Source of the DNA: Eukaryota sp. GEM-RC1
Lineage: Eukaryota
Direction: 5' to 3'
DNA length: 64,000 bases
Assembly: GCA_040285855.1 (NCBI GenBank)
Contig: JAUFOQ010000013.1
Coordinates: 558,001 to 622,000 of the forward strand
The notes under the pieces were generated by a model. The model saw nothing but the letters and a program-made list of their open reading frames with translations. It was not told the DNA's origin and searched no databases. Positions 1,183 through 49,109 of the stretch are shown here, piece by piece. How positions within the stretch are numbered: the stretch's first letter is position 1; every line of letters starts with the position of its first letter. The position numbers and the translations under genes are program-made.

Positions 1183-1880
1183 TTAAAAATACATTCTATT
1201 TTTGTGTAGTGATTTTAACGACTGTTGTGTTTGACTGTTGATTGAGTTGTTATCTAGATAAATCGTAGTAACTGAAGAATTCACCTTCAAAGCTTCAGCA
1301 ATTGCAATAGCTCCTTCATTACCAATTAAGTTGTTATATAGATTGATCGTAGAAACTGAAGAATTCACCTTCAAAGATTCAGCAATTGCAATAGCTCCTT
1401 CAGGACCAATTGAGTTGTTATCTAGATAAATCGTAGTAACTGAAGAATTCACCTTCAAAGCTTCAGCAATTGCAATAGCTCCTTCATTACCAATTGAGTT
1501 GTTATCTAGATAAATCGTAGAAACCTCATTTCTCACCATTTCATCATAACAATTCTTCAACTTCGAACTAAGCTTGCTCCAATCAATAACAAGCTCCTTC
1601 TCTTCAACTTGTTGTACAAGGCACACACTTTCAATAGACTTGATTGGCGAAGGAGTGTCATCTAGAAGCCTAGCAGAAGCAACATTGGACTCCGAAACAA
1701 CGGAAAGAGAGGCCAAACGACGAGAAGCTTCGGAGTGAATAGAGCAAAGTTCTTCATTTAAAGAGGAGATGATAGCGGATTGGTTGTTAAGTAGGGTGGA
1801 AGTTGTGGTAATGAAGTTTCCTCTTTCAATCTCACCTGTTTCTGTACCTTATCAATAACGTGTTTTGTTTTTAAGATATT
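1183..1880 (-). CDS. LRR cassette 1, long type (linker + 4 LRR)
   Basis: ORF 1183-1716 starts at TTG. Linker SLSVVSESNVASARLLDD precedes the LRRs. Leader is homologous to the RBCC-adjacent copy up to ~1919. Confidence 0.7.
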
Positions 1881-2545
1881 CTAGAGAAAAAATATCCAAT
1901 ACTGGGTCGATTAGTTAATCTTACATAATTTACTAAATTTAAGATGTACAAAAGCGGTTTTGTGTGTTGACACAGAGACAAAAACTTTTTTTGACAACAC
2001 CACTACAGTGTACATACATCTAATAATCAATATCCTCAAAGTCCAGATTGCCTATCCGGAAATTCTCCCCTACTTTGGATAGCCGAAATTGTAATTAACA
2101 TGTCTATAAACTCTTTCTTCAGATATTAATTGTGCAATTCCTAAAACAATTCTGAACATTAGATTTAAAAAAGCACAATCGTAATTTCAATAACATGTAC
2201 TTGCCTATGTAGAAACCGCAGAAACTAATTTAACATAACTAGGTCTTCGTAAATTTAACATCGTCATATGTGTTTCTTCTATTGACTCCAATATTCAACA
2301 CAACAAAAGTACCAGTAAATAACGTGTGTTATTCACCAGGGTAGGACTTAAAATCTGCACCTGAACACCTGCTAAACTACTATGATATTTGACCCTGTCA
2401 CGGAGTTTTGTTTGGGATAATGGTTGTTCCGAGCTAAAGGATTTTTCAAGTGTGTATTATATTCACCGATTAATTATTGTACTTTTGATGGGAAATTAAT
2501 TATGATCAATGACAAATGTGATTTTTTTATACAACGAAAACTTGT

Positions 2546-3698
2546 TTAAAAATACATTCTATTTTTGTGTAGTGATTTTAACGACTGTTGTGTTTGACTG
2601 TTGATTGAGTTGTTATATAGATAAATCGTAGAAACTGCAGAATTCACCTTCAAAGCTTCAGCAATTGCAATAGCTCCTTCAGGACCAATTGAGTTGTTAT
2701 CTAGATCGATCCTAGAAACTGAAGAATTCACCTTCAAAGCTTCAGCAATTGCAATAGCTCCTTCAGGACCAATTGAGTTGTTATCTAGATCGATCCTAGA
2801 AACTGAAGAATTCACCTTCAAAGCTTCAGCAATTGCAATAGCTCCTTCATTACCAATTGAGTTTTCAGCTAGATAAATCTCAGAAACTGAAGAATTCACC
2901 TTCAAAGCTTCAGCAATTGCAATAGCACCTTCAGGACCAATTGAGTTGTTCCTTAGATCGATGGCAAAAACTGAAGAATTCACCTTCAAAGCTTCAGCAA
3001 TTGCAATAGCTCCTTCATTACCAATTGAGTTTTCAGCTAGATAAATCTCAGAAACTGAAGAATTCACCTTCAAAGCTTCAGCAATTGCAATAGCTCCTTC
3101 ATTACCAATTGAGTTGACACCTAGACCAATCGTAGAGACTGAAGAATTCACCTTCAAAGCTTCAGCAATTGCAATAGCTCCTTCATTACCAATTGAGTTG
3201 ACACCTAGACCAATCGTAGAAACTGAAGAATTCACCTTCAAAGCTTCAGCAATTGCAATAGCTCCTTCAGGACCAATTGAGTTGTTACCTAGATCGATCG
3301 CAGAAACCTCATTTCTCACCATTTCATCATAACAATTCTTCAACTTCGAACTAAGCTCGTTCCAATCAATAACAAGCTCCTTCTCTTCAACTTGTTGTAC
3401 AAGGCACACACTTTCAATAGACTTGATTGGCGAAGGAGTGTCATCTAGAAGCCTAGCAGAAGCAACATTGGACTCCGGAAACAACGGAAAGAGAGGCCAA
3501 ACGACGAGAAGCTTCGGAGTGAATAGAGCAAAGTTCTTCATTTAAAGAGGAGATGATAGCAGATTGGTTCTTAAGTAGGGTGGAGGTTGTGGTAATGAAG
3601 TTTTCGCCGATCTTTGGTTTAAAGATTACACCTTTCTTTCTTTTCAATCTCACCTGTTTCTGTACCTTATCAATAACGTGTTTTGTTTTTAAGATATT
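2546..3698 (-). CDS. LRR cassette 2, long type (linker + 9 LRR), 1-nt frameshift near 3477
   Basis: ORFs 3453-3653 and 2546-3541 join if the extra G in gactccggaa is removed. Confidence 0.75.
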
Positions 3699-4364
3699 CT
3701 AGAGAAAAAATATCCAATACTGGGTCGATTAGTTAATTTTACATAATTTACTAAATTTCAGATGTACAAAAAGCGGTTTTGTGTGTTGACACAGAGACAA
3801 AAACTTTTTTTGACAACACCACTACAGTGTACATACATCTAATAATCAATATCCTCAAAGTCCAGATTGCCTATCCGGAAATTCTCCCCTACTTTGGATA
3901 GCCGAAATTGTAATTAACATGTCTATAAACTCTTTCTTCAGATATTAATTGTGCAATTCCTAAAACAATTCTGAACATTAGATTTAAAAAAGCACAATCG
4001 CAATTTCAATAACATGTACTTGCCTATGTAGAAACCGCAGAAATTAATTTAACATAACTAGGTCTCCGTAAATTTAACATCGTCATATGTGTTTCTGCTT
4101 TTGACTCCAATATTCAACACAACAAAAGTACCAGTAAATAACGTGTGTTATTCACCAGGGTAGGACTTAAAATCTACACCTGAACACCTGCTAAACTACT
4201 ATGATATTTGACCCTGTCACGGAGTTTTGTTTGGGATAATGGTTGTTCTGAGCTAAATGATTTTTCAAGTGTGTATTATATTCACCGATTAATTATTGTA
4301 CTTTTGATGGGAAATTAATTATGATCAATGACAAATGTGATTTTTTTATACAACGAAAACTTGT

Positions 4365-5583
4365 TTAAAAATACATTCTATTTTTGTGTAGTGATTTTAA
4401 CGACTGTTGTGTTTGACTGTTGATTGAGTTGTTATTAAGATAAATCGTAGAAACTGAAGAATTTACCTTCAAAGCTTCAGCAATTGCAATAGCTCCTTCA
4501 AGACCAATTGAGTTGGTCCATAGATAAATCTCAGAAACTGAAGAATTCACCTTCAAAGCTTCAGCAATTGTAATAGCTCCTTCAAGACCAATTGAGTTGT
4601 TATCTAGATCGATCCTAGAAACTGAAGAATTCACCTTCAAAGCTTCAGCAATTATAATAGCTCCTTCAGGACCAATTGAGTTGAAACCTAGACCAATCGT
4701 AGAAACTGCAGAATTCACCTTCAAAGCTTCAGCAATTGCAATAACTCCTTCAGAACCAATTGAGTTGTAACCTAGATAAATCTCAGAAACTGAAGAATTC
4801 ACCTTCAAAGCTTCAGCAATTGCAATAGCTCCTTCATTACCAATTGAGTTGTTATCTAGATGGATCGTAGAAACTGAAGAATTCACCTTCAAAGCTTCAG
4901 CAATTGCAATAGCTCCTTCATTACCAATTGAGTTTTCAGCTAGATAAATCTCAGAAACTGAAGAATTCACCTTCAAAGCTTCAGCAATTGCAATAGCTCC
5001 TTCATTACCAATTGAGTTGTTCCATAGATAAATCTCAGAAACTGAAGAATTCACCTTCAAAGCTTCAGCAATTGCAATAGCTCCTTCATTACCAATTGAG
5101 TTGTTATCTAGATAAATCGCAGAAACTGAAGAATTCACCTTCAAAGCTTCAGCAATTGCAATAGCTCCTTCAAGACCAATTGAGTTGTTATCTAGATCGA
5201 TCCTAGAAACCTCATTTCTCACCATTTCATCATAACAATTCTTCAACTTCGAACTAAGCTCGTTCCAATCAATAACAAGCTCCTTCTCTTCAACTTGTTG
5301 TACAAGGCACACACTTTCAATAGACTTGATTGGCGAAGGAGTGTCATCTAGAAGCCTAGCAGAAGCAACATTGGACTCCGAAACAACAGAAAGAGAGGCC
5401 AAACGACGAGAAGCTTCGCAGTGGATAGAGCAAAGTTCTTCATTTAAAGAGGAGATGATAGCAGATTGGTTCTTAAGTAGGGTGGAGGTTGTGGTCGCCG
5501 ATCTTTGGTTTAAAGATTACACCTCTTTTCAATCTCACCTGTTTCTGTACCTTATCAATAACGTGTTTTGTTTTTAAGATATT
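4365..5583 (-). CDS. LRR cassette 3, long type (linker + 10 LRR)
   Basis: ORF 4365-5402. Leader has 6-nt and 11-nt deletions relative to cassettes 2 and 31. Confidence 0.7.
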
Positions 5584-6249
5584 CTAGAGAAAAAATATCC
5601 AATACTGGGTCGATTAGTTAATTTTACATAATTTACTAAATTTCAGATGTACAAAAAGCGGTTTTGTGTGTTGGCACAAACACAAAAACTTTTATTGACA
5701 ACACCACTACAGTGTACATACATCTAATAATCAATATCCGCAAAGTCCAGATTGCCTATCCGGAAATTCTCCCCTACTTTGGATAGCCGAAATTGTAATT
5801 AACATGTCTATAAACTCTTTCTTCAGATATTAATTGTGCAATTCCTAAAACAATTCTGAACATTAGATTTAAAAAAGCACAATCGCAATTTCAATAACAT
5901 GTACTTGCCTATGTAGAAACCGCAGAAATTAATTTAACATAACTAGGTCTTCGTAAATTTAACATCGTCATATGTGTTTCTGCTGTTGACTCCAATATTC
6001 AACACAACAAAAGTACCAGTAAATAACGTGTTTTATTCACCAGGGTAGGACTTAAAATCTGCACCTGAACACCTGCTAAACTACTATGATATTTGACCCT
6101 GTCACGGAGTTTTGTTTGGGATAATGGTTGTTCTGAGCTAAATGATTTTTCAAGTGTGTATTATATTCACCGATTAATTATTGTACTTTTGGTTGGAAAT
6201 TAATTATGATCAATGACAAATGTGATTTTTTTATACAACGAAAACTTGT

Positions 6250-6942
6250 TTAAAAATACATTCTATTTTTGTGTAGTGATTTTAACGACTGTTGTGTTTG
6301 ACTGTTGATTGAGTTGTTATTAAGATAAATCGTAGAAACTGAAGAATTTACCTTCAAAACTTCAGCAATTGCAATAGCTCCTTCAAGACCAATTGAGTTG
6401 TTATCTAGATCGATCCTAGAAACTGAAGAATTCACCTTCAAAGCTTCAGCAATTATAATAGCTCCTTCAGGACCAATTGAGTTGAAACCTAGACCAATCG
6501 TAGAAACTGCAGAATTCACCTTCAAAGCTTCAGCAATTGCAATAGCTCCTTCAGGACCAATTGAGTTGTGCCTTAGATCGATGTAAGAAACTGAAGAATT
6601 CACCTTCAAAGCTTCAGCAATTGCAATAGCCCCTTCATTACCAATTGAGTTGTAACCTAGATAAATCTCAGAAACTGAAGAATTCACCTTCAAAGCTTCA
6701 GCAATTGCAATAGCCCCTTCATTACCAATTGAGTTGTAACCTAGATAAATCTCAGAAACTGAAGAATTCACCTTCAAAGCTTCAGCAATTGCAATAGCTC
6801 CTTCAGTACCAATTGAGTTGTTACCTAGATCGACTGTAGAAACTGAAGAATTCACCTTCAAAGATTCAGCAATTGCAATTGCTCCTTCAGGACCAATTGA
6901 GTTGTTATATAGATTGATCGTAGAAACCTCATTTCTCACCAT
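6250..6942 (-). CDS. LRR cassette 4, short type, 8 LRR
   Basis: ORF MVRNEV...KNRMYF. Confidence 0.7.
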   Translation of the reverse strand: MVRNEVSTINLYNNSIGPEGAIAIAESLKVNSSVSTVDLGNNSIGTEGAIAIAEALKVNSSVSEIYLGYNSIGNEGAIAIAEALKVNSSVSEIYLGYNSIGNEGAIAIAEALKVNSSVSYIDLRHNSIGPEGAIAIAEALKVNSAVSTIGLGFNSIGPEGAIIIAEALKVNSSVSRIDLDNNSIGLEGAIAIAEVLKVNSSVSTIYLNNNSINSQTQQSLKSLHKNRMYF

Positions 6943-7298
6943 TTCATCTCAACAATTGTAATAATGAAACTGTATGTTGGTAATTCGATGGTAAATGTAT
7001 ACTATAAATTAACAATATTTCAGATAATAATAAATCTCTGTTGTTGTTGAGAACAATAGCAAGAGCACCAGTAAATAACGTGTGTTATTCACGAGGGTAC
7101 TTAAAATGTGTACCTGAACATCTGCTAAACTACTATGATATTTGACTCTGTAGCGGATTTTTGTTTGGGATAATGTTTGTTCTGAGCAAAATGATTTTTC
7201 AAGTGTGCATTACATTCATCGTTTAATTATGGTGCTTTTGATGAGAAATTAATTATGATTAATGACAAATGTGATGTTTATAAACAATGAAAACTTGT

Positions 7299-8175
7299 TT
7301 AAAAAAGACATTCTATTTTTGTGTAGTGATTTTAACGACTGTTGTGTTTGACTGTTGATTGAGTTGTTGTCTAGATAAATCGTAGTAACTGAAGAATTCA
7401 CCTTCAAAGCTTCAGCAATTGCAATAGCTCCTTCATTAGCAATTGAGTTGTTTCCTAGATAAATCTCAGAAACTGAAGAATTCACCTTCAAAGCTTCAGC
7501 AATTGCAATAGCTCCTTCATTACCAATTGAGTTGCCACCTAGATAAATCTCAGAAACTGAACCATTCACCTTCAAAGCTTCAGCAATTGCAATAGCTCCT
7601 TCACTACCAATTGAATTGTGCCTTAGATAAATCGTAGAAACTGCAGAATTCACCTTCAAAGCTTCAGCAATTGCAATAGCTCCTTCACTACCAATTGAAT
7701 TGTGCCTTAGATAAATCGTAGAAACTGCAGAATTCACCTTCAAAGCTTCAGCAATTGCAATAGCTCCTTCAGGACCAATTGAGTTGTTATATAGATAAAT
7801 CGTAGAAACTGAAGAATTCACCTTCAAAGCTTCAGCAATTGCAATAGCTCCTTCATTACCAATTGAGTTGTGCCTTAGATCGATCGTAGAAACTAAAGAA
7901 TTCACCTTCAAAGCTTCAGCAATTGCAATAGCTCCTTCAGGACCAATTGAGTTGCCAGCTAGATGGATCGCTCCTGAGTTGTTCCATAGATAAATCTCAG
8001 AAACTGAACAATTCACCTTCAAAGCTTCAGCAATTGCAATAGCTCCTTCACTACCAATTGAATTGTGCCTTAGATAAATCGCAGAAACTGAAGAATTCAC
8101 CTTCAAAGCTTCAGCAATTGCAATAGCTCCTTCAGGACCAATTGAGTTGTAATCTAGATTGATCGTAGAAACCTC
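7299..8175 (-). pseudogene. LRR cassette 5, ATG-less, ~11 LRR including one internally deleted module
   Basis: 2-nt AT insertion after MVRN puts the ATG out of frame. In-frame deletion gives WNNSGAIHL. Extra A at the stop. Confidence 0.75.
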
Positions 8176-8549
8176 ATATTTCTCACCATTTCATCTCAAC
8201 AATTTTAATAATGAAACTGTACATTGGGAATTCGATGGTAAATGTATAGTAGAAATTAACAATTCTTCAGATACTAATAAAGTTCTGTTGTTGTTGTTGT
8301 GAACAATAACAAAAGTACCAGTAAATAACGTGTGTTATTCATTAGGGCAGTATTTAAAATCTGTACTTGAACATCTGCTAAACTACTATGATATTTGACT
8401 GTCACGGAGTTTTGTTTGGGATAATGTTTGTTCTGAGCAAAATGATTTTTCAAATGTGTATTATATTCACCGATTAATTATGGTACTTTTGATGAGAAAT
8501 TAAATATGATTAATAACAAATATGATTTTAATGTACAATGAAAACTTGT

Positions 8550-9230
8550 TTAAAAAGACATTTTATTTTTGTGTAGTGATTTTAATGACTGTTGTGTTTG
8601 ACTGTTGATTGAGTTGTTATCTAGATAAATCGTAGTAACTGAAGAATTCACCTTCAAAGCTTCAGCAATTGCAATAGCTCCTTCATTACCAATTAAGTTG
8701 TTATATAGATTGATCGTAGAAACTGAAGAATTCACCTTCAAAGATTCAGCAATTGCAATAGCTCCTTCAGGACCAATTGAGTTGTTATCTAGATAAATCG
8801 TAGTAACTGAAGAATTCACCTTCAGAGCTTCAGCAATTGCAATAGCTCCTTCATTACCAATTGAGTTGCCACCTAGATAAATCTCAGAAACTGAACAATT
8901 CACCTTCAAAGCTTCAGCAATTGCAATAGCTCCTTCATTACCAATTGAGTTGTGCCTTAGATCGATCGTAGAAACTAAAGAATTCACCTTCAAAGCTTCA
9001 GCAATTGCAATAGCTCCTTCAGGACCAATTGAGTTGTTTCCTAGATGGATCGTAGAAACTGAAGAATTCACCTTCAAAGCTTCAGCAATTGCAATAGCTC
9101 CTTCACTACCAATTGAATTGTGCCTTAGATAAATCGTAGAAACTGCAGAATTCACCTTCAAAGCTTCAGCAATTGCAATAGCTCCTTCAGGACCAATTGA
9201 GTTGTAATCTAGATTGATCGTAGAAACCTC
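8550..9230 (-). pseudogene. LRR cassette 6, ATG-less, 8 LRR
   Basis: Open LRR frame (track ORF 8550-9161 starts at TTG). AT insertion at 5' end. Confidence 0.75.
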
Positions 9231-9604
9231 ATATTTCTCACCATTTCATCTCAACAATTTTAATAATGAAACTGTACATTGGGAATTCGATGGTAAATGT
9301 ATAGTAGAAATTAACAATTCTTCAGATACTAATAAAGTTCTGTTGTTGTTGTTGTGAACAATAACAAAAGTACCAGTAAATAACGTGTGTTATTCATTAG
9401 GGCAGTATTTAAAATCTGTACTTGAACATCTGCTAAACTACTATGATATTTGACTGTCACGGAGTTTTGTTTGGGATAATGTTTGTTCTGAGCAAAATGA
9501 TTTTTCAAGTGTGTATTATATTCACCGATTAATTATGGTACTTTTGATGAGAAATTAAATATGATTAATAACAAATATGATTTTAATGTACAATGAAAAC
9601 TTGT

Positions 9605-10201
9605 TTAAAAAGACATTTTATTTTTGTGTAGTGATTTTAATGACTGTTGTGTTTGACTGTTGATTGAGTTGTTATCTAGATAAATCTCAGAAACTGAAGA
9701 ATTCACCTTCAAAGCTTCAGCAATTGCAATAGCTCCTTCATTACCAATTGAGTTGCCACCTAGATAAATCTCAGAAACTGAACAATTCACCTTCAAAGCT
9801 TCAGCAATTGCAATAGCTCCTTCATTACCAATTGAGTTGCCACCTAGATAAATCTCAGAAACTGAACAATTCACCTTCAAAGCTTCAGCAATTGCAATAG
9901 CTCCTTCACTACCAATTGAATTGTGCCTTAGATAAATCGTAGAAACTGCAGAATTCACCTTCAAAGCTTCAGCAATTGCAATAGCTCCTTCATTACCAAT
10001 TGAGTTGCCACCTAGATAAATCTCAGAAACTGAACAATTCACCTTCAAAGCTTCAGCAATTGCAATAGCTCCTTCACTACCAATTGAATTGTGCCTTAGA
10101 TAAATCGTAGAAACTGCAGAATTCACCTTCAAAGCTTCAGCAATTGCAATAGCTCCTTCAGGACCAATTGAGTTGTAATCTAGATTGATCGTAGAAACCT
10201 C
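9605..10201 (-). pseudogene. LRR cassette 7, ATG-less, 7 LRR
   Basis: Open LRR frame. AT insertion at 5' end. Confidence 0.75.
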
Positions 10202-10574
10202 ATATTTCTCACCATTTCATCTCAACAATTTTAATAATGAAACTGTACATTGGGAATTCGATGGTAAATGTATAGTAGAAATTAACAATTCTTCAGATAC
10301 TAATAAAGTTCTGTTGTTGTTGTGAACAATGACAAAAGTACCAGTAAATAACGTGTGTTATTCATTAGGGCAGTATTTAAAATCTGTACTTGAACATTTG
10401 CTAAACTACTATGATATTTGACTCTGTCACGGAGTTTTGTTTGGGATAATGTTTGTTCTGAGCAAAATGATTTTTCAAGTGTGTATTATATTCACCGATT
10501 AATTATGGGACTTTTGATGAGAAATTAAATATGATTAATAACAAATATGATTTTAATGTACAATGAAAACTTGT

Positions 10575-11348
10575 TTAAAAAGACATTCTATTTTTGTTTA
10601 GTAATTTTAATGACTGTTGTGTTTGACTGTTGATTGAGTTGTTATCTAGAAAAATCGTAGAAACTGAAGAATTCACCTTCAAAGCTTCAGCAATCGCAAT
10701 AGCTCCTTCATTACCAATTGAGTTTTCAGCTAGATAAATTTCAGAAACTGAAGAATTCACCTTCAAAGCTTCAGCAATCGCAATAGCTCCTTCATTACCA
10801 ATTGAGTTGTTATCTAGAAAAATCGTAGAAACTGAAGAATTCACCTTCAAAGCTTCAGCAATCGCAATAGCTCCTTCATTACCAATTGAGTTTTCAGCTA
10901 GATAAATCTCAGAAACTGAAGAATTCACCTTCAAAGCTTCAGCAATTGCAATAGCACCTTCAGGACCAATTGAGTTGTTATATAGATAAATCGTAGAAAC
11001 TGAAGAATTCACCTTCAAAGCTTCAGCAATTGCAATAGCTCCTTCATTACCAATTGAGTTGTGCCTTAGATCGATCGTAGAAACTAAAGAATTCACCTTC
11101 AAAGCTTCAGCAATTGCAATAGCTCCTTCAGGACCAATTGAGTTGCCAGCTAGATCGACTGTAGAAACTGAAGAATTCACCTTCAACGCTTCAGCAATTG
11201 CAATAGCTCCTTCATTACCAATTAAGTTGTTATATAGATTGATCTTAGAAACTGAAGAATTCACCTTCAAAGCTTCAGCAATTGCAATAGCTCCTTCATT
11301 ACCAATTGAGTTGTTATCTAGATAAATCGTAGAAACTGAAGAATTCAC
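10575..11348 (-). pseudogene. LRR cassette 8, ATG-less (5' variant GAA AGG GTG AAT), 9 LRR
   Basis: Open LRR frame starting at GTG. Same 5' end as cassette 38. Confidence 0.75.
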
Positions 11349-11710
11349 CCTTTCATCTCAACAATTTTAATAATGAAACTGTACATTGGTAATTCGATGG
11401 TAAGTGTACAGTATAAATTAACAATATTTCAGATACTAATAAATTTCTGTTGTTGTTGAGAACAATAGGAAAAGTAGCAGTAAATAATGTGTGTTAGTCA
11501 CCAGGGTATTACTTAAAATCTGTACTTGAACATCTGCTAAACTACTATGATATTTGACTCTGTCACGGAGTTTTGTTTGGGATAATGGTTGTTCTGAGCT
11601 AAATGATTTTTCAAGTGTGCATTACATTCACAGTTTAATTATGGTGCTTTTGATGAGAAATTAATTATGATTAATGGAAAATGTGATTTTTATATGTAAT
11701 GAAAACTTGT

Positions 11711-15765: not shown

Positions 15766-15802
15766 ATGACAAATGTGATTTTTATATACAATGAAAACTT
15801 GT

Positions 15803-38593: not shown

Positions 38594-38951
38594 TTAAAAA
38601 AGACATTCTATTTTTGTGTAGTGATTTTAACGACTGTTGTGTTTGACTGTTGATTGAGTTGTTATCTAGAGAAATCGTAGAAACTGAACAATTCACCTTC
38701 AACGCTTCAGCAATTGCAATAGCTCCTTCATTACCAATTGAGTTGGTCCATAGATTGATCGTAGAAACTGAAGAATTCACCTTCAAAGCTTCAGCAATTG
38801 CAATTGCTCCTTCAGGACCAATTGAGTTGTTATATAGATTGATCGTAGAAACTGAAGAATTCACCTTCAAAGATTCAGCAATTGCAATAGCTGCTTCAGG
38901 ACCAATTGAGTTGTTATATAGATTGATCGTAGAAACCTCATTTCTCACCAT
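38594..38951 (-). CDS. LRR cassette 33, short type, 4 LRR
   Basis: ORF MVRNEV. An extra A at the usual stop extends the track ORF to 38544. Confidence 0.7.
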
Positions 38952-39307
38952 TTCATCTCAACACTTGTAATAATGAAACTGTATGTTGGTAATTCGATGG
39001 TAAATGTATACTATAAATTAACAATATTTCAGATACTAATAAATCTCTGTTGTTGTTGAGAACAATAGCAAGAGCACCAGTAAATAACGTGTGTTATTCA
39101 CGAGGGTACTTAAAATGTGTACCTGAACATCTGCTAAACTACTATGATATTTGACTCTGTAGCGGAGTTTTGTTTGGGATAATGTTTGTTCTGAGCAAAA
39201 TGATTTTTCAAGTGTGCATTACATTCATCGTTTAATTATGGTGCTTTTGATGAGAAATTAATTATGATTAATGACAAATGTGATTTTTATAAACAATGAA
39301 AACTTGT

Positions 39308-40090
39308 TTAAAAAAGACATTCTATTTTTGTGTAGTGATTTTAACGACTGTTGTGTTTGACTGTTGATTGAGTTGTTATCTAGAGAAATCGTAGAAACTG
39401 AACAATTCACCTTCAAAGCTTCAGCAATTGCAATAGCTCCTTCAGGACCAATTGAGTTGTAATCTAGAGAAATCGTAGAAACTGAACAATTCACCTTCAA
39501 CGCTTCAGCAATTGCAATAGCTCCTTCAGGACCAATTGAGTTGTAATCTAGATAAATCTTAGAAACTGAAGAATTCACCTTCAAAGCTTCAGCAATTGCA
39601 ATAGCTCCTTCACTACCAATTGAATTGTGCCTTAGATAAATCGTAGAAACTGCAGAATTCACCTTCAACGCTTCAGCAATTGCAATAGCATAGCTCCTTC
39701 AGGACCAATTGAGTTGTTAAATAGATAAATCTTAGAAACTGAAGAATTCATCTTCAAAGCTTCAGCAATTGCAATAGCTCCTTCAGGACCAATTGAATTG
39801 TGCCTTAGATAAATCGTAGAAACTGCAGAATTCACCTTCAAAGCTTCAGCAATTGCAATAGCTCCTTCATTACCAATTGAGTTGGTCCATAGATTGATCG
39901 TAGAAACTGAAGAATTCACCTTCAAAGCTTCAGCAATTGCAATTGCTCCTTCAGGACCAATTGAGTTGTTATATAGATTGATCGTAGAAACTGAAGAATT
40001 CACCTTCAAAGATTCAGCAATTGCAATAGCTCCTTCAGGACCAATTGAGTTGTTATATAGATTGAACGTAGAAACCTCATTTCTCACCAT
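39308..40090 (-). pseudogene. LRR cassette 34, short type, 9 LRR, frameshifted by a 5-nt duplication at ~39690
   Basis: tgcaatagcatagctcc splits ORFs 39665-40090 and 39258-39668. Confidence 0.7.
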
Positions 40091-40446
40091 TTCATCTCAA
40101 CACTTGTAATAATGAAACTGTATGTTGGTAATTCGATGGTAAATGTATACTATAAATTAACAATATTTCAGATACTAATAAATCTCTGTTGTTGTTGAGA
40201 ACAATAGCAAGAGCACCAGTAAATAACGTGTGTTATTCACGAGGGTACTTAAAATGTGTACCTGAACATCTGCTAAACTACTATGATATTTGACTCTGTA
40301 GCGGAGTTTTGTTTGGGATAATGTTTGTTCTGAGCAAAATGATTTTTCAAGTGTGCATTACATTCATCGTTTAATTATGGTGCTTTTGATGAGAAATTAA
40401 TTATGATTAATGACAAATGTGATTTTTATAAACAATGAAAACTTGT

Positions 40447-40804
40447 TTAAAAAAGACATTCTATTTTTGTGTAGTGATTTTAACGACTGTTGTGTTTGAC
40501 TGTTGATTGAGTTGTTATCTAGAGAAATCGTAGAAACTGAAGAATTCACCTTCAACGCTTCAGCAATTGCAATAGCTCCTTCATTACCAATTGAGTTGGT
40601 CCATAGATTGATCGTAGAAACTGAAGAATTCACCTTCAAAGCTTCAGCAATTGCAATTGCTCCTTCAGGACCAATTGAGTTGTTATATAGATTGATCGTA
40701 GAAACTGAAGAATTCACCTTCAAAGATTCAGCAATTGCAATAGCTGCTTCAGGACCAATTGAGTTGTTATATAGATTGATCGTAGAAACCTCATTTCTCA
40801 CCAT
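40447..40804 (-). CDS. LRR cassette 35, short type, 4 LRR
   Basis: ORF MVRNEV. Extra A at the usual stop. Confidence 0.7.
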
Positions 40805-40989
40805 TTCATCTCAACACTTGTAATAATGAAACTGTATGTTGGTAATTCGATGGTAAATGTATACTATAAATTAACAATATTTCAGATACTAATGAATCTC
40901 TGTTGTTGTTGAGAACAATAGCAAGAGCACCAGTAAATAACGTGTGTTATTCACGAGGGTACTTAAAATGTGTACCTGAACATCTGCTA

Positions 40990-41267
40990 ATCGTAGAAAC
41001 TGAAGAATTCACCTTCAAAGCTTCAGCAATTGCAATAGCTCCTTCAGTACCAATTGAGTTGTTACCTAGATCGACTGTAGAAACTGAAGAATTCACCTTC
41101 AAAGATTCAGCAATTGCAATTGCTCCTTCAGGACCAATTGAGTTGTTATATAGATTGATCGTAGAAACTGAAGAATTCACCTTCAAAGATTCAGCAATTG
41201 CAATAGCTCCTTCAGGACCAATTGAGTTGTTATATAGATTGATCGTAGAAACCTCATTTCTCACCAT
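40990..41267 (-). pseudogene. LRR cassette 36, 3'-truncated by a deletion fusing it into the spacer
   Basis: Junction catctgctaa|tcgtagaaac at 40990. C-terminal cap is missing. Confidence 0.8.
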
Positions 41268-41623
41268 TTCATCTCAACAATTGTAATAATGAAACTGTAT
41301 GTTGGTAATTCGATGGTAAATGTATACTATAAATTAACAATATTTCAGATACTAATAAATCTCTGTTGTTGTTGAGAACAATAGCAAGAGCACCAGTAAA
41401 TAACGTGTGTTATTCACGAGGGTACTTAAAATGTGTACCTGAACATCTGCTAAACTACTATGATATTTGACTCTGTAGCGGAGTTTTGTTTGGGATAATG
41501 TTTGTTCTGAGCAAAATGATTTTTCAAGTGTGCATTACATTCATCGTTTAATTATGGTGCTTTTGATGAGAAATTAATTATGATTAATGACAAATGTGAT
41601 TTTTATAAACAATGAAAACTTGT

Positions 41624-42904
41624 TTAAAAAGACATTCTATTTTTGTGTAGTGATTTTAACGACTGTTGTGTTTGATTGCTGATTGAGTTGTTATCTAGAT
41701 AAATCGTAGAAACTGAAGAATTCACCTTCAACGCTTCAGCAATTGCAATAGCTCCTTCATTACCAATTGAGTTGTTATCTAGATAAATCGTAGAAACTGA
41801 AGAATTCACCTTCAAAGCTTCAGCAATTGCAATAGCTCCTTCATTACCAATTAAGTTGTACCATAGATTGATCTTAGAAACTGAAGAATTCACCTTCAAA
41901 GCTTCAGCAATTGCAATAGCTCCTTCATTACCAATTGAGTTGTACCATAGATAAATCTCAGAAACTGAAGAATTCACCTTCAGAGCTTCAGCAATTGCAA
42001 TAGCTCCTTCATTACCAATTGAGTTGTACCATAGATAAATCTCAGAAACTGAAGAATTCACCTTCAGAGCTTCAGCAATTGCAATAGCTCCTTCATTACC
42101 AATTGAGTTGTCACCTAGATAAATCGTAGAAACTGAAGAATTCACCTTCAAAGCTTCAGCAATTGCAATAGCTCCTTCATTACCAATTGAGTTGTCACCT
42201 AGATAAATCGTAGAAACTGAAGAATTCACCTTCAAAGCTTCAGCAATTGCAATAGCTCCTTCGACAGCAATTGAGTTGTTCCATAGATAAATCGTAGAAA
42301 CTGAAGAATTCACCTTGAAAGCTTCAGCAATTGCAATAGCTCCTTCGACACCAATTGAGTTGTTATATAGATTGATCGTAGAAACTGAAGAATTCACCTT
42401 CAAAGCTTCAGCAATTGCAATAGCGCCTTCAGGACCAATTGAGTTGTTAAATAGATAAATCGTAGAAACTGAAAAATTCACCTTCAAAGCTTCAGCAATT
42501 GCAATAGCTCCTTCGACAGCAATTGAGTTGTTCCATAGATAAATCGTAGAAACTGAAGAATTCACCTTCAAAGCTTCAGCAATTGCAATAGCTCCTTCGA
42601 CACCAATTGAGTTGTTATATAGATTGATCGTAGAAACTGAAGAATTCACCTTCAAAGCTTCAGCAATTGCAATAGCGCCTTCAGGACCAATTGAGTTGTT
42701 AAATAGATAAATCGTAGAAACTGAAGAATTCACCTTCAAAGCTTCAGCAATTGCAATAGCTCCTTCAGTACCAATTGAGTTGTTACCTAGATCGACTGTA
42801 GAAACTGAAGAATTCACCTTCAAAGATTCAGCAATTGCAATTGCTCCTTCAGGACCAATTGAGTTGTTATATAGATTGATCGTAGAAACCTCATTTCTCA
42901 CCAT
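41624..42904 (-). CDS. LRR cassette 37, short type, 15 LRR
   Basis: 426-aa ORF MVRNEV...KNRMSF. Confidence 0.75.
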   Translation of the reverse strand: MVRNEVSTINLYNNSIGPEGAIAIAESLKVNSSVSTVDLGNNSIGTEGAIAIAEALKVNSSVSTIYLFNNSIGPEGAIAIAEALKVNSSVSTINLYNNSIGVEGAIAIAEALKVNSSVSTIYLWNNSIAVEGAIAIAEALKVNFSVSTIYLFNNSIGPEGAIAIAEALKVNSSVSTINLYNNSIGVEGAIAIAEAFKVNSSVSTIYLWNNSIAVEGAIAIAEALKVNSSVSTIYLGDNSIGNEGAIAIAEALKVNSSVSTIYLGDNSIGNEGAIAIAEALKVNSSVSEIYLWYNSIGNEGAIAIAEALKVNSSVSEIYLWYNSIGNEGAIAIAEALKVNSSVSKINLWYNLIGNEGAIAIAEALKVNSSVSTIYLDNNSIGNEGAIAIAEALKVNSSVSTIYLDNNSISNQTQQSLKSLHKNRMSF

Positions 42905-43260
42905 TTCATCTCAACAATTGTAATAATGAAACTGTATGTTGGTAATTCGATGGTAAATGTATACTATAAATTAACAATATTTCAGATACTAATAAATCTC
43001 TCTTGTTGTTGAGAACAATAGCAAGAGCACCAGTAAATAACGTGTGTTATTCACGAGGGTACTTAAAATGTGTACCTGAACATCTGCTAAACTACTATGA
43101 TATTTGACTCTGTAGCGGAGTTTTGTTTGGGATAATGTTTGTTCTGAGCAAAATGATTTTTCAAGTGTGCATTACATTCATCGTTTAATTATGGTGCTTT
43201 TGATGAGAAATTAATTATGATTAATGACAAATGTGATTTTTATAAACAATGAAAACTTGT

Positions 43261-43698
43261 TCAAAAAGACATTCTATTTTTGTGTAGTGATTTTAACGAC
43301 TGTTGTGTTTGACTGTTGATTGAGTTGTTATCTAGATAAATCGTAGTAACTGAAGAATTCACCTTCAACGCTTCAGCAATTGCAATAGCTCCTTCATTAC
43401 CAATTGAGTTGTTATCTAGATAAATCGTAGTAACTGAAGAATTCACCTTCAAAGCTTCAGCAATTGCAATAGCTCCTTCACTACCAATTGAGTTGTTACC
43501 TAGAGAAATCGTAGAAACTGAAGGATTCACCTTCAACGCTTCAGCAATTGCAATAGCTCCTTCATTACCAATTAAGTTGTTATATAGATTGATCTTAGAA
43601 ACTGAAGAATTCACCTTCAAAGCTTCAGCAATTGCAATAGCTCCTTCATTACCAATTGAGTTGTTATCTAGATAAATCGTAGAAACTGAAGAATTCAC
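43261..43698 (-). pseudogene. LRR cassette 38, ATG-less (GAA AGG GTG AAT), 5 LRR
   Basis: Open frame from GTG with a TGA stop. Same 5' end as cassette 8. Confidence 0.7.
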
Positions 43699-44060
43699 CC
43701 TTTCATCTCAACAATTTTAATAATGAAACTGTACATTGGTAATTCGATGGTAAGTGTACAGTATAAATTAACAATATTTCAGATACTAATAAATTTCTGT
43801 TGTTGTTGAGAACAATAGGAAAAGTAGCAGTAAATAATGTGTGTTAGTCACCAGGGTATTACTTAAAATCTGTACTTGAACATCTGCTAAACTACTATGA
43901 TATTTGACTCTGTCACGGAGTTTTGTTTGGGATAATGGTTGTTCTGAGCTAAATGATTTTTCAAGTGTGCATTACATTCACAGTTTAATTATGGTGCTTT
44001 TGATGAGAAATTAATTATGATTAATGGAAAATGTGATTTTTATATGTAATGAAAACTTGT

Positions 44061-44501
44061 TTAAAAAGAGATTCTATTTTTGTGTAGTGATTTTAACGAC
44101 TGCTGTGTTTGACTGTTGATTGAGTTGTCACCTAGATAAATCGTAGAAACTGAAGAATTCACCTTCAAAGATTCAGCAATTGCAATAGCTCCTTCAGGAC
44201 TAATTGAGTTGTTATATAGATTGATCGTAGAAACTGAAGAATTCACCTTCAAAGATTCAGCAATTGCAATAGCTCCTTCAGGACCAACTGAGTTGTTATC
44301 TAGATAAATCGTAGTAACTGAAGAATTCACCTTCAAAGCTTCAGCAATTGCAATAGCTCCTTCAGTACCAATTGAGTTGTTACCTAGATCGACTGTAGAA
44401 ACTGAAGAATTCACCTTCAAAGATTCAGCAATTGCAATTGCTCCTTCAGGACCAATTGAGTTGTTATATAGATTGATCGTAGAAACCTCATTTCTCACCA
44501 T
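44061..44501 (-). CDS. LRR cassette 39, short type, 5 LRR
   Basis: ORF MVRNEV...KNRISF. Confidence 0.7.
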   Translation of the reverse strand: MVRNEVSTINLYNNSIGPEGAIAIAESLKVNSSVSTVDLGNNSIGTEGAIAIAEALKVNSSVTTIYLDNNSVGPEGAIAIAESLKVNSSVSTINLYNNSISPEGAIAIAESLKVNSSVSTIYLGDNSINSQTQQSLKSLHKNRISF

Positions 44502-44857
44502 TTCATCTCAACAATTGTAATAATGAAACTGTATGTTGGTAATTCGATGGTAAATGTATACTATAAATTAACAATATTTCAGATACTAATAAATCTCTGT
44601 TGTTGTTGAGAACAATAGCAAGAGCACCAGTAAATAACGTGTGTTATTCACGAGGGTACTTAAAATGTGTACCTGAACATCTGCTAAACTACTATGATAT
44701 TTGACTCTGTAGCGGAGTTTTGTTTGGGATAATGTTTGTTCTGAGCAAAATGATTTTTCAAGTGTGCATTACATTCATCGTTTAATTATGGTGCTTTTGA
44801 TGAGAAATTAATTATGATTAATGACAAATGTGATTTTTATAAACAATGAAAACTTGT

Positions 44858-45298
44858 TTAAAAAGACATTCTATTTTTGTGTAGTGATTTTAACGACTGT
44901 TGTGTTTGACTGTTGATTGAGTTGTTATCTAGATAAATCGTAGTAACTGAAGAATTCACCTTCAACGCTTCAGCAATTGCAATAGCTCCTTCATTACCAA
45001 TTAAGTTGTTATATAGATTGATCGTAGAAACTGAAGAATTCACCTTCAAAGCTTCAGCAATTGCAATAGCTCCTTCATTACCAATTAAGTTGTTATATAG
45101 ATTGATCGTAGAAACTGAAGAATTCACCTTCAAAGATTCAGCAATTGCAATAGCTCCTTCAGGACCAATTGAGTTGTTACCTAGATCGACTGTAGAAACT
45201 GAAGAATTCACCTTCAAAGATTCAGCAATTGCAATTGCTCCTTCAGGACCAATTGAGTTGTTATATAGATTGATCGTAGAAACCTCATTTCTCACCAT
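44858..45298 (-). CDS. LRR cassette 40, short type, 5 LRR
   Basis: ORF MVRNEV...KNRMSF. Confidence 0.7.
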   Translation of the reverse strand: MVRNEVSTINLYNNSIGPEGAIAIAESLKVNSSVSTVDLGNNSIGPEGAIAIAESLKVNSSVSTINLYNNLIGNEGAIAIAEALKVNSSVSTINLYNNLIGNEGAIAIAEALKVNSSVTTIYLDNNSINSQTQQSLKSLHKNRMSF

Positions 45299-45654
45299 TT
45301 CATCTCAACAATTGTAATAATGAAACTGTATGTTGGTAATTCGATGGTAAATGTATACTATAAATTAACAATATTTCAGATACTAATAAATCTCTGTTGT
45401 TGTTGAGAACAATAGCAAGAGCACCAGTAAATAACGTGTGTTATTCACGAGGGTACTTAAAATGTGTACCTGAACATCTGCTAAACTACTATGATATTTG
45501 ACTCTGTAGCGGAGTTTTGTTTGGGATAATGTTTGTTCTGAGCAAAATGATTTTTCAAGTGTGCATTACATTCATCGTTTAATTATGGTGCTTTTGATGA
45601 GAAATTAATTATGATTAATGACAAATGTGATTTTTATAAACAATGAAAACTTGT

Positions 45655-46263
45655 TTAAAAAGACATTCTATTTTTGTGTAGTGATTTTAACGACTGTTGT
45701 GTTTGACTGTTGATTGAGTTGTTATCTAGATAAATCGTAGTAACTGAAGAATTCACCTTCAACGCTTCAGCAATTGCAATAGCTCCTTCATTACCAATTA
45801 AGTTGTTATATAGATTGATCGTAGAAACTGAAGAATTCACCTTCAAAGCTTCAGCAATCGCAATAGCTCCTTCAGGACCAATTGAGTTGAAACCTAGACC
45901 AATCGTAGAAACTGCAGAATTCACCTTCAAAGCTTCAGCAATTTCAATAGCTCCTTCAGGACCAATTGAGTTGTGCCTTAGATCGATGTAAGAAACTGAA
46001 GAATTCACCTTCAAAGCTTCAGCAATTGCAATAGCGCCTTCAGGACCAATTGAGTTGTAACCTAGATAAATCTCAGAAACTGAAGAATTCACCTTCAAAG
46101 CTTCAGCAATTGCAATAGCTCCTTCAGGACCAATTGAGTTGTTAAATAGATAAATCTTAGAAACTGAAGAATTCACCTTCAAAGATTCAGCAATTGCAAT
46201 TGCTCCTTCAGGACCAATTGAGTTGTTATATAGATTGATCGTAGAAACCTCATTTCTCACCAT
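45655..46263 (-). CDS. LRR cassette 41, short type, 7 LRR
   Basis: ORF differs from cassette 43 by one residue. Confidence 0.7.
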   Translation of the reverse strand: MVRNEVSTINLYNNSIGPEGAIAIAESLKVNSSVSKIYLFNNSIGPEGAIAIAEALKVNSSVSEIYLGYNSIGPEGAIAIAEALKVNSSVSYIDLRHNSIGPEGAIEIAEALKVNSAVSTIGLGFNSIGPEGAIAIAEALKVNSSVSTINLYNNLIGNEGAIAIAEALKVNSSVTTIYLDNNSINSQTQQSLKSLHKNRMSF

Positions 46264-46619
46264 TTCATCTCAACAATTGTAATAATGAAACTGTATGTTG
46301 GTAATTCGATGGTAAATGTATACTATAAATTAACAATATTTCAGATACTAATAAATCTCTGTTGTTGTTGAGAACAATAGCAAGAGCACCAGTAAATAAC
46401 GTGTGTTATTCACGAGGGTACTTAAAATGTGTACCTGAACATCTGCTAAACTACTATGATATTTGACTCTGTAGCGGAGTTTTGTTTGGGATAATGTTTG
46501 TTCTGAGCAAAATGATTTTTCAAGTGTGCATTACATTCATCGTTTAATTATGGTGCTTTTGATGAGAAATTAATTATGATTAATGACAAATGTGATTTTT
46601 ATAAACAATGAAAACTTGT

Positions 46620-46976
46620 TTAAAAAGACATTCTATTTTTGTGTAGTGATTTTAACGACTGTTGTGTTTGACTGTTGATTGAGTTGTTATCTAGATAAAT
46701 CGTAGTAACTGAAGAATTCACCTTCAACGCTTCAGCAATTGCAATAGCTCCTTCATTACCAATTAAGTTGTTATCTAGATAAATCGTAGTAACTGAAGAA
46801 TTCACCTTCAACGCTTCAGCAATTGCAATAGCTCCTTCATTACCAATTAAGTTGTTATATAGATTGATCGTAGAAACTGAAGAATTCACCTTCAAAGATT
46901 CAGCAATTGCAATTGCTCCTTCAGGACCAATTGAGTTGTTATATAGATTGATCGTAGAAACCTCATTTCTCACCAT
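46620..46976 (-). CDS. LRR cassette 42, short type, 4 LRR
   Basis: ORF MVRNEV...KNRMSF. Confidence 0.7.
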   Translation of the reverse strand: MVRNEVSTINLYNNSIGPEGAIAIAESLKVNSSVSTINLYNNLIGNEGAIAIAEALKVNSSVTTIYLDNNLIGNEGAIAIAEALKVNSSVTTIYLDNNSINSQTQQSLKSLHKNRMSF

Positions 46977-47332
46977 TTCATCTCAACAATTGTAATAATG
47001 AAACTGTATGTTGGTAATTCGATGGTAAATGTATACTATAAATTAACAATATTTCAGATACTAATAAATCTCTGTTGTTGTTGAGAACAATAGCAAGAGC
47101 ACCAGTAAATAACGTGTGTTATTCACGAGGGTACTTAAAATGTGTACCTGAACATCTGCTAAACTACTATGATATTTGACTCTGTAGCGGAGTTTTGTTT
47201 GGGATAATGTTTGTTCTGAGCAAAATGATTTTTCAAGTGTGCATTACATTCATCGTTTAATTATGGTGCTTTTGATGAGAAATTAATTATGATTAATGAC
47301 AAATGTGATTTTTATAAACAATGAAAACTTGT

Positions 47333-47941
47333 TTAAAAAGACATTCTATTTTTGTGTAGTGATTTTAACGACTGTTGTGTTTGACTGTTGATTGAGTTGT
47401 TATCTAGATAAATCGTAGTAACTGAAGAATTCACCTTCAACGCTTCAGCAATTGCAATAGCTCCTTCATTACCAATTAAGTTGTTATATAGATTGATCGT
47501 AGAAACTGAAGAATTCACCTTCAAAGCTTCAGCAATCGCAATAGCTCCTTCAGGACCAATTGAGTTGAAACCTAGACCAATCGTAGAAACTGCAGAATTC
47601 ACCTTCAAAGCTTCAGCAATTGCAATAGCTCCTTCAGGACCAATTGAGTTGTGCCTTAGATCGATGTAAGAAACTGAAGAATTCACCTTCAAAGCTTCAG
47701 CAATTGCAATAGCGCCTTCAGGACCAATTGAGTTGTAACCTAGATAAATCTCAGAAACTGAAGAATTCACCTTCAAAGCTTCAGCAATTGCAATAGCTCC
47801 TTCAGGACCAATTGAGTTGTTAAATAGATAAATCTTAGAAACTGAAGAATTCACCTTCAAAGATTCAGCAATTGCAATTGCTCCTTCAGGACCAATTGAG
47901 TTGTTATATAGATTGATCGTAGAAACCTCATTTCTCACCAT
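47333..47941 (-). CDS. LRR cassette 43, short type, 7 LRR
   Basis: ORF MVRNEV...KNRMSF. Confidence 0.7.
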   Translation of the reverse strand: MVRNEVSTINLYNNSIGPEGAIAIAESLKVNSSVSKIYLFNNSIGPEGAIAIAEALKVNSSVSEIYLGYNSIGPEGAIAIAEALKVNSSVSYIDLRHNSIGPEGAIAIAEALKVNSAVSTIGLGFNSIGPEGAIAIAEALKVNSSVSTINLYNNLIGNEGAIAIAEALKVNSSVTTIYLDNNSINSQTQQSLKSLHKNRMSF

Positions 47942-48297
47942 TTCATCTCAACAATTGTAATAATGAAACTGTATGTTGGTAATTCGATGGTAAATGTATA
48001 CTATAAATTAACAATATTTCAGATACTAATAAATCTCTGTTGTTGTTGAGAACAATAGCAAGAGCACCAGTAAATAACGTGTGTTATTCACGAGGGTACT
48101 TAAAATGTGTACCTGAACATCTGCTAAACTACTATGATATTTGACTCTGTAGCGGAGTTTTGTTTGGGATAATGTTTGTTCTGAGCAAAATGATTTTTCA
48201 AGTGTGCATTACATTCATCGTTTAATTATGGTGCTTTTGATGAGAAATTAATTATGATTAATGACAAATGTGATTTTTATAAACAATGAAAACTTGT

Positions 48298-49079
48298 TTA
48301 AAAAGACATTCTATTTTTGTGTAGTGATTTTAACGACTGTTGTGTTTGACTGTTGATTGAGTTGTTATCTAGATAAATCGTAGTAACTGAAGAATTCACC
48401 TTCAACGCTTCAGCAATTGCAATAGCTCCTTCATTACCAATTAAGTTGTTATCTAGATAAATCGTAGTAACTGAAGAATTCACCTTCAACGCTTCAGCAA
48501 TTGCAATAGCTCCTTCATTACCAATTAAGTTGTTATATAGATTGATCGTAGAAACTGAAGAATTCACCTTCAAAGATTCAGCAATTGCAATAGCTCCTTC
48601 AGGACCAATTGAGTTGTTATCTAGATAAATCGTAGTAACTGAAGAATTCACCTTCAGAGCTTCAGCAATTGCAATAGCTCCTTCATTACCAATTGAGTTG
48701 TCACCTAGATCGATCTCAGAAACCTCATTTCTCACCATTTCATCATAACAATTCTTCAACTTCGAACTAAGCTTGCTCCAATCAATAACAAGCTCCTTCT
48801 CTTCAACTTGTTGTACAAGGCACACACTTTCAATAGACTTGATTGGCGAAGGAGTGTCATCTAGAAGCCTAGCAGAAGCAACATTGGACTCCGAAACAAC
48901 GGAAAGAGAGGCCAAACGACGAGAAGCTTCGGAGTGAATAGAGCAAAGTTCTTCATTTAAAGAGGAGATGATAGCGGATTGGTTGTTAAGTAGGGTGGAA
49001 GTTGTGGTAATGAAGTTTCCTCTTTCAATCTCACCTGTTTCTGTACCTTATCAATAACGTGTTTTGTTTTTAAGATATT
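48298..49079 (-). CDS. LRR cassette 44, long type (linker + 5 LRR), abutting the RBCC ORF; probable 3' half of an RBCC-LRR gene
   Basis: Track ORF 48298-48915. The frame is open further upstream (GEIERGNFITTTSTLLNNQSAIISSLNEELCSIH) to ~49047. Confidence 0.75.
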
Positions 49080-49109
49080 CTAGAGAAAAAATATCCAATA
49101 CTGGGTCGA

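Follow-up and report, generated by a model that had tools for sequence, protein, structure and literature searches.

A tandem array of headless leucine-rich repeat cassettes, mixed by recombination, beside an interrupted TRIM-like gene of the protist Eukaryota sp. GEM-RC1

Repeat shuffling combined with a few hypervariable codons is already known from fungal NLRs, from PRDM9, and from algal and ciliate genes for leucine-rich repeat (LRR) proteins. In the HNWD/NWD genes of Podospora anserina (het-d, het-e), near-identical WD40 repeats are reported to carry four codons under diversifying selection, to be exchanged within and between loci, and to remain intact in pseudogenes (PMC1805685, PMC12222747). 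The zinc-finger minisatellite of PRDM9 is described as a coding tandem repeat with changes concentrated at three contact codons and turnover in the number and identity of its units (PMC3890296). The accounts of the LRR-ROCO genes of Ectocarpus and the 90-bp-exon LRR genes of Tetrahymena describe shuffled LRR units, positive selection on the concave face, many pseudogenes, and spare noncoding LRRs as a proposed reservoir (PMC3341825, PMC6564038). The VLR genes of lamprey and hagfish keep LRR donor cassettes near an incomplete gene and vary on the concave strand, and their assembly is described as somatic, stepwise, and deaminase linked, filling an incomplete germline gene for a surface receptor (PMC12264053). 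Here we describe a tandem array of LRR cassettes beside an interrupted TRIM-like gene of Eukaryota sp. GEM-RC1, in a stretch of 64,000 nucleotides (the window; contig JAUFOQ010000013.1 of assembly GCA_040285855.1, positions 558,001 to 622,000 of the forward strand) to which all coordinates below refer. The array is recombination driven and mechanistically ordinary, in an unusual setting.

A tolerant scan found 45 cassettes containing 343 LRR strands (units) on the minus strand of window positions 1 to 48.7 kb. Each cassette holds 3 to 15 units of 84 bp, and 293 of 298 adjacent units are spaced by exactly 84 bp, with no intervening DNA. The unit encodes a 28-residue LRR of the ribonuclease inhibitor type (Pfam LRR_6, E = 4e-41), with an LxxLxLxxN strand followed by a helix; this strand/helix period was modeled at a pLDDT of about 90, and the closest folds of the LRR part in Foldseek were NOD2 (root mean square deviation of about 2 Å) and ribonuclease inhibitor. 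Residues x3 to x9 of the unit form 58 different protein “words” (62 DNA words), 25 of the 58 being present as single copies. We numbered the cassettes from right to left, from c1 (48355-48723) to c45 (14-808), which is cut at the window edge; the array continues past that edge, and 45 is thus a lower bound. A common C-cap closes c1 to c44 except c9, which lost it by deletion. All 45 cassettes are headless, corresponding to the 3′ ends of a RING-B-box-B-box-coiled-coil-LRR (TRIM-like) gene. Five (c1, c14, c42, c43, and c44) retain the linker, behind a long spacer that terminates in the same foreign piece, and the other 40 begin immediately before the first LRR.

Positions 1..48723, minus strand: tandem array of 45 headless LRR cassettes (repeat scan, Pfam LRR_6).
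Positions 48298..49019, minus strand: cassette 1, with linker (from the second coiled-coil hairpin helix), 5 LRR units, and C-cap.
Positions 35474..36961, minus strand: long cassette 14, with linker from VIFKPK and 13 units.
Positions 4365..5516, minus strand: long cassette 42, with linker and 10 units.
Positions 2546..3630, minus strand: long cassette 43, with linker containing a frame break and 9 units.
Positions 1183..1848, minus strand: long cassette 44, with linker and 4 units.
Positions 47927..48297, no strand: example of a short spacer, made up of about 250 bp of gene 3′ flank and about 110 bp that adjoin the start of the cassette.

To the right of c1 lies the head of the same gene, separated from its tail by a short noncoding piece.

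Positions 49020..49124, minus strand: 105-bp noncoding piece splitting the head from the tail (alignment).
Positions 49110..49820, minus strand: TRIM-like head of 236 aa with RING, two B-boxes, and coiled coil (Pfam zf-C3HC4/U-box, zf-B_box twice).

Searches with the linker and the head recovered intact RING-B-box-B-box-coiled-coil-linker-LRR fusions, P0001 (595 aa), P0006 (668 aa), P0004 (512 aa), and P0008 (500 aa), all assigned by NCBI to Eukaryota sp. GEM-RC1; the window head, P0001, and P0006 are likely to lie on the same chromosome. The window head differs from P0001 by three substitutions in residues 1 to 232 and then ends in four unrelated residues and a stop. The sequence of the 105-bp piece also terminates each of the four long spacers (motif at 1902, 3720, 5605, 36983, and 49101). 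In the AlphaFold model of P0001, in which the RING/B-box part is of low confidence and the LRR part is confident, helices span residues 167 to 220, 224 to 231, and 244 to 282, and strand E345-349 coincides with x3 to x7 of the LRR unit; the break in the window head maps between the coiled-coil hairpin (167 to 231) and the returning helix (244 to 282). Pfam matches and model helices together give the domain order of TRIM/RBCC proteins (RING, one or two B-boxes, coiled coil). NACHT and NB-ARC domains were not found in P0001 among 19 Pfam families at E values up to 0.1, and the parent protein of the array is therefore not a member of the NLR family. Reassignment of a stop codon across the head-tail gap was considered and rejected because the intact paralogues reveal the gap to be foreign sequence and their C-caps end at the identical stop.

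In animal TRIMs, the PRYSPRY domain picks the target. By analogy, the intact proteins, which are likely to be cytosolic, may be E3 ligases in which the concave face of the LRR chooses the target, and they would likely use the concave strand face to bind a variable target, which they would ubiquitinate; an invading virus or a bacterial protein is the simplest guess for that target. Short TRIM isoforms act as dominant-negative partners, and the truncated head, which if expressed would keep the RING, the B-boxes, and most of the coiled coil, could do the same to the intact proteins.

We think that the locus is probably the product of runaway tandem amplification and concerted evolution, in which the 3′ half of the broken gene gave rise to at least 45 head-to-tail copies, whose 84-bp units were mixed, likely by ordinary homologous exchange that likely also passed sequence between the array and an intact paralogue. 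Foreign DNA would have split one TRIM-LRR copy, and the tail and its 3′ flank would have been amplified via unequal crossing-over, with two junction types (long and short), and later a frameshifted start, spreading through the array. Mixing would proceed at any point of the repeat, through unequal crossing-over and gene conversion, and the near-identical 57-bp framework would allow repair to slip by multiples of 84 bp, mixing whole and half units. Such slippage would keep frames open even in silent cassettes, as would exchange with intact paralogues, which would also move alleles; the word alleles themselves may be shaped by diversifying selection in expressed copies. With open frames and slippage by multiples of 84 bp, the array would thus both record old alleles and be able to return new combinations with no dedicated machinery, and it is best read as a de facto silent reservoir of binding surfaces.

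The evidence for recombination came from four-gamete, PHI-type, and parsing tests, all run as custom scripts. A single tree-like history of tandem duplication, named in a preliminary description of this DNA as the alternative to shuffling, predicts no incompatible site pairs; we found that 243 of 528 informative pairs were incompatible among the 124 distinct 84-bp units, as were 93 of 276 among units seen at least twice (n = 43). Incompatibility rose with distance (PHI-type permutation p = 0.0002 to 0.0006), a pattern that no simulation of nonrecombining trees with fitted hypermutable sites reproduced (0 of 200 and 0 of 80). Three quartets across the central Leu showed all four combinations at least twice, with at least two base differences on each side, the clearest being EIY/TIH (4 bases apart) combined with GNN/AEN (4 bases apart) in 17, 18, 7, and 2 copies. 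Furthermore, 13 of the 62 DNA words are single-crossover mosaics that lie at least two bases from any other word.

A parse of 42 cassettes (46 runs; the near-duplicates c4, c23, and c25 were left out) as mosaics copied from one another covered 24,702 bp with 82 private mismatches and 117 switches, which are not independent events. Most switches fell in the long conserved helix region. Within the strand we counted 22 of 112 scorable switches (19.6%), compared with 20.1% for uniform exchange simulated and passed through the same parser; with a stricter penalty the count was 16 of 91 (simulated, 20.9%). A crossover hot spot at Leu6, which had p = 0.006 on a crude expectation, was abandoned when simulated mosaics run through the same parser weakened it to p = 0.03 (17 of 112 switches versus 8.9%) and, at the stricter setting, to p = 0.26 (11 of 91 versus 8.8%). 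The spacers are mosaic too (s21_22, s14_15, and s30_31). Since switches are uniform and spacers recombine, nothing points to programmed, VLR-like assembly, and that part of the preliminary description is unsupported; its analogy to PRDM9-like repeat shuffling fits, and the in-register exchange of whole and half units that it proposed is supported, but a preference for crossovers within the variable strand is not. Exchange of half units does take place, yet it is what ordinary homologous exchange would be expected to produce.

The same mixing is visible on a larger scale. The 38 short spacers fall mostly into two lineages about 9% apart, some being mosaic, and these lineages largely match the in-frame short and the frameshifted classes of cassette, whose frameworks differ by 2.6%; this contrast fits the homogenization of units. 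The longest exact repeat, 1,729 bp (24284-26012 = 27814-29542), has an offset of 3.5 kb, and another of 1,224 bp (26155-27378 = 44507-45730) has an offset of 18.4 kb, both being recent long-distance copies of whole units. At 7894-8004 (minus strand), c40 has two strands only 27 bp apart and in frame (EIYLWNN followed directly by AIHLAGN), a junction that is the result of out-of-register exchange. In c45, at 246-532 (minus strand), a 30-bp part of a unit (NSIGPEGAIA) underwent three in-frame duplications, giving units of 114 and 144 bp. One spacer carries an insertion, with a T run at one end and a 131-aa open reading frame (ORF) within it (15312-15707, plus strand); the ORF had no Pfam match at E values up to 0.1, and we take it to resemble the C-terminal endonuclease region of site-specific non-long-terminal-repeat retrotransposons.

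Positions 15173..15773, plus strand: 585-bp insertion in a spacer, between 8-bp direct repeats (15173-15180 and 15766-15773).

All 14 words listed in the preliminary description were recovered, in 5 to 51 copies each. The nucleotide marks that it had linked to TIYLRHN were perfect, Asn being encoded by AAT in 26 of 26 copies and the preceding NSAV carrying GCA in 26 of 26, compared with 2 and 12, respectively, of the other 272 nonfirst units. Its hybrid words all exist as well (EIYL, TIYL, and AIYL with WNN in 14, 3, and 1 copies; EIYL and TIHL with AEN in 19 and 2; AIYL and TINL with QNN in 14 and 1; TINL and EIYL with WTN in 5 and 1), three of them as single copies. Combinatorial shuffling, too, was confirmed: the same words recur in different orders, giving 40 distinct word strings in the 45 cassettes, but mixing is far from free, since only 142 distinct word pairs occur, compared with a mean of 226 and a minimum of 212 in 1,000 shuffles, and words show a strong positional bias. 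Likewise, the array that it described is real but does not start at 1183, because the cassette at 14-808 lies to the left of this point and runs off the window.

Variation is concentrated at x3, x5, x7, x8, and x13 (pi, 0.368 versus 0.032 in the framework), with almost one codon per amino acid at the variable sites; pN/pS is 2.46 at x3/5/7/8, 4.4 at x13, and 0.32 in the framework. These codons lie on or beside the LRR β-strand, in keeping with the suggestion that shuffling creates new binding surfaces, but 24 of the 45 cassettes have no in-frame ATG; therefore, most array surfaces could not be made directly and would matter only if copied into an intact gene. An ATG lies in frame five codons ahead of the first strand in 21 cassettes, is lost in 3, and in another 21, all of which begin with TINLDYN, is shifted out of frame by a 2-base insertion.

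Positions 7249..35118, minus strand: region of the 21 cassettes with the 2-base insertion at the start.

The ATG-less cassettes hold 200 of the 343 units. No stop codon interrupts any of the 343 units, and frameshifts were found in 2 of the 45 cassettes (c11 and c36), with in-frame insertions or deletions in c40 and c45. Framework alleles seen once or twice comprise 4 synonymous and 18 nonsynonymous changes, compared with 9 and 8 among commoner alleles (Fisher p = 0.039); new framework changes in the array thus look neutral or unselected, or may in part be assembly errors, and old ones look filtered. The stop at the C-cap follows either five or six T's, the 6-T form occurring in 7 of 41; this may be a run-length error and was not used as evidence.

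The link between the array and the intact genes bears on the alternative that a selected system similar to vls or VLR is at work, in which the array is maintained as an archive of donors, copied mainly one way, at a high and perhaps induced rate, into one or a few expressed TRIM-LRR genes. The head, the noncoding gap, and the cassettes do resemble an incomplete locus with flanking donors, and the units of the ATG-less cassettes are free of stops. P0001 and P0006 are identical over residues 1 to 306, yet they have one word in common, and the array holds 58 words compared with 11 in the two proteins together. In favor of exchange as we propose it, 5 of 9 words of P0001 and 8 of 11 of P0006 are present in the array, compared with 0 to 3 in nine other paralogues, and P0001 shares an exact match of 83 aa with the ATG-less c27 (0 of 1,000 shuffles) and, over five units, differs from it by 3 mismatches in 140 aa (0 of 300 shuffles). 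This stretch includes the rare hybrid TINLQNN, which is single copy in the array; the QNN parent, AIYLQNN, is found in 12 cassettes and in neither intact protein, a pattern that would fit the archive.

Positions 22546..23409, minus strand: cassette 27, without an in-frame ATG, with a five-unit run in common with intact P0001.

Against an archive of this kind, the donors are themselves heavily recombined, spacers included, there is no breakpoint hot spot, the window head differs from the intact heads by three residues, a drift expected of a dead copy, and the intact genes hold private words (4 of 9 in P0001 and 3 of 11 in P0006 are absent from the 45 cassettes). Moreover, c14, the linker haplotype and first units of which are similar to those of P0001, looks like an ancestor of P0001 that holds both parents of TINLQNN, judging by the sequences, so that the hybrid could have formed within the gene and the direction of transfer is not readable from the proteins. 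We therefore consider such a system unlikely, and we give little credence to what it would imply, namely, that a free-living single-celled eukaryote keeps a selected silent LRR archive and, through segmental gene conversion, rewrites the target-binding face of a cytosolic TRIM-like ubiquitin ligase, as an anticipatory vls/VLR-like repertoire tied to protein destruction outside animals, plants, and fungi.

Several results also weigh against amplification with homologous exchange as we propose it. The private words of P0001 and P0006 are among them, and the longest match of P0006 to the array, 47 aa, does not exceed those of shuffled sequences (P = 0.67). The exchange between P0001 and the array is read from protein identity, which later conversion explains no better than recent common descent would. 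The proportion of incompatible site pairs, taken alone, can be reproduced on a tree with hypermutable sites (P = 0.23 and 0.44), so that the distance pattern alone calls for recombination. The lack of stop codons is not significant by itself (none among 42 framework alleles, where 9 of 207 possible changes would create one; synonymous share, p = 0.20), and the pN/pS values, calculated as they were on recombining paralogous units, are descriptive and not a formal test. Finally, frame breaks at T runs in the neighborhood make it likely that the assembly contains errors.

That many cassettes are instead small expressed LRR-only genes (decoys, adaptors, or regulators) that are selected in their own right, the array being a gene cluster, is less likely still. 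The 21 cassettes with an in-frame ATG mostly close in an intact C-cap, and headless linker-LRR proteins are predicted elsewhere in GEM-RC1 (P0002, P0003, and P0015), but the ATG of the short cassettes is a codon from within the intact gene that the junction has exposed, 21 of the 24 cassettes that lack an in-frame ATG trace to one frameshifted start that spread, and new framework changes look neutral.

We think it very unlikely that much of the mosaicism arose as an artifact of building a long-read consensus across an 84-bp repeat and polishing it with short reads. The T-run frame breaks nearby and the 25 single-copy words would fit this explanation, and the genome of named relatives was obtained from Nanopore R9.4 reads with Illumina correction, as described in PMC11316075; long reads are, however, reported to have rebuilt the Podospora repeats accurately (PMC12222747). 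Hybrids recur across cassettes (TINLWTN in 5, TIHLGNN in 4, and TIHLDNN in 3), the recombination signal persists in units seen at least twice, the linked marks of TIYLRHN are without exception, and the single-copy TINLQNN reappears in P0001 in the same context.

The weakest alternative, that the cassettes are alternative last exons, any one of which is joined to the head transcript by splicing or trans-splicing, is hardly credible. In its favor, the linker of long units is preceded by an ACTAAT that resembles a branch point and by a pyrimidine-rich AG, and the cassette start has 12 or 14 bases between GTGAGA and GAG, the removal of which would put both start types in the same frame. Against it, c1 has two stops in the LRR frame directly past that AG, 12 to 14 bases is to our knowledge below any known spliceosomal intron, the record for the head is an unspliced protein of 236 aa, and one-piece intact paralogues exist.

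The organism is likely to be free living. Skoliomonas sp. GEM-RC is described as a free-living bacterivorous metamonad of a soda lake, with a Nanopore and Illumina assembly that is 48% repetitive (PMC11316075). Skoliomonads have many RING-B-box-coiled-coil proteins with differing tails (P0007, P0026 to P0041); the head of P0007 is almost identical to that of the LRR fusions, but its tail is short and unrelated. We searched with this LRR-less paralogue against 1.84 billion representatives and inspected the best 150 matches. Three were the already known LRR carriers of GEM-RC1, and an LRR was found in none of the remaining 147, either by motif or by a profile of the array unit, both of which detected the positive controls. 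Ten top matches that were looked up were skoliomonad proteins, 3 from GEM-RC1 and 7 from TZLM1-RC; six skoliomonad relatives that were domain scanned had B-boxes in all six and a RING in five, without a named C-terminal family. The head family thus appears to have expanded with varied tails, and among the matches listed the LRR fusion is seen only in GEM-RC1.

Metagenome scans gave no exact match to a framework motif and no head relative among 49 pattern matches. Of the 21 cassette ORFs with an ATG, 15 were checked, and none is on record as a protein, which says little because in the relatives' genome repeats were masked ahead of gene prediction (PMC11316075). In the literature, subscription papers being mostly not covered, searches that also covered metamonad LRR arrays gave no description of the locus or of a protist TRIM-LRR fusion, and the term “leucine-rich repeat” is absent from the skoliomonad papers that the search returned; the supplements of PMC11316075 may annotate the locus.

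Beyond the head, about 4.8 kb (50000-54800) contains no ORF of 100 aa with a start codon, and the array spacers do not match there. It is followed on the minus strand, at 54893-58414, by a single long gene with a signal-like N terminus, Kelch repeats, a cysteine-rich ephrin-receptor-like stretch, and membrane helices. Three one-base breaks, all of them in or close to runs of T, split this gene over four frames and are likely to be assembly errors or the marks of a pseudogene. The right end of the window (59748-64000, plus strand) resembles a decayed long-terminal-repeat retrotransposon, with fragments of reverse transcriptase (62257-62595) and RNase H (62986-63639).

Two things are new here. 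One is the type of receptor, in which a TRIM-like head is joined to a hypervariable LRR; the other is how large the silent store is and how it is laid out, with no fewer than 45 headless cassettes arranged in a single tandem array in a deep-branching anaerobic protist. If array sequence flows into the intact genes, the brown-algal proposal that nonanimal receptor repertoires draw on spare LRRs would become testable in a culturable microbe, and the array illustrates how a VLR- or vls-like archive might originate in a gene accident.

Among the described systems, the array resembles HNWD in the very high identity between repeats, in their few hypervariable codons, and in the exchange of repeats within and between cassettes; exchange between the array and an intact gene is seen at the protein level only, and the integrity of repeats in silent copies, although present, does not go beyond the neutral expectation. 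It differs from HNWD in its 28-aa LRR, in a RING-B-box-coiled-coil head without NACHT, and in forming one tandem array of at least 45 headless cassettes and 343 units, whereas the silent copies of HNWD are three dispersed pseudogenes, among about 70 repeats. It shares the 84-bp period with PRDM9, which binds DNA and is one array within one gene with no known silent cassette archive, whereas a store of silent cassettes exists here. Unlike the genes of Ectocarpus and Tetrahymena, with one repeat per exon and exchange through introns, the units here are contiguous coding sequence, and exchange also splits them. LRR donors beside an incomplete gene and a variable concave strand recall VLR, but an incomplete gene is not all that the germline holds, since the interrupted window gene has complete head-plus-LRR paralogues on record (P0001, P0006, P0004, and P0008); in addition, a cytosolic location is likely for the protein, and the donors exchange sequence with one another. 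The contiguous silent in-frame cassettes beside a related expressed sequence resemble Borrelia vlsE, as far as that system is described, in layout only; in vlsE, segmental conversion runs one way into a single expression site, whereas the cassettes here are, over evolutionary time, mosaics of each other. As in TRIM/RBCC E3 ligases, a RING, two B-boxes, and a coiled-coil hairpin, known here from sequence and model, precede a C-terminal domain, but that domain is a hypervariable LRR of the ribonuclease inhibitor type.

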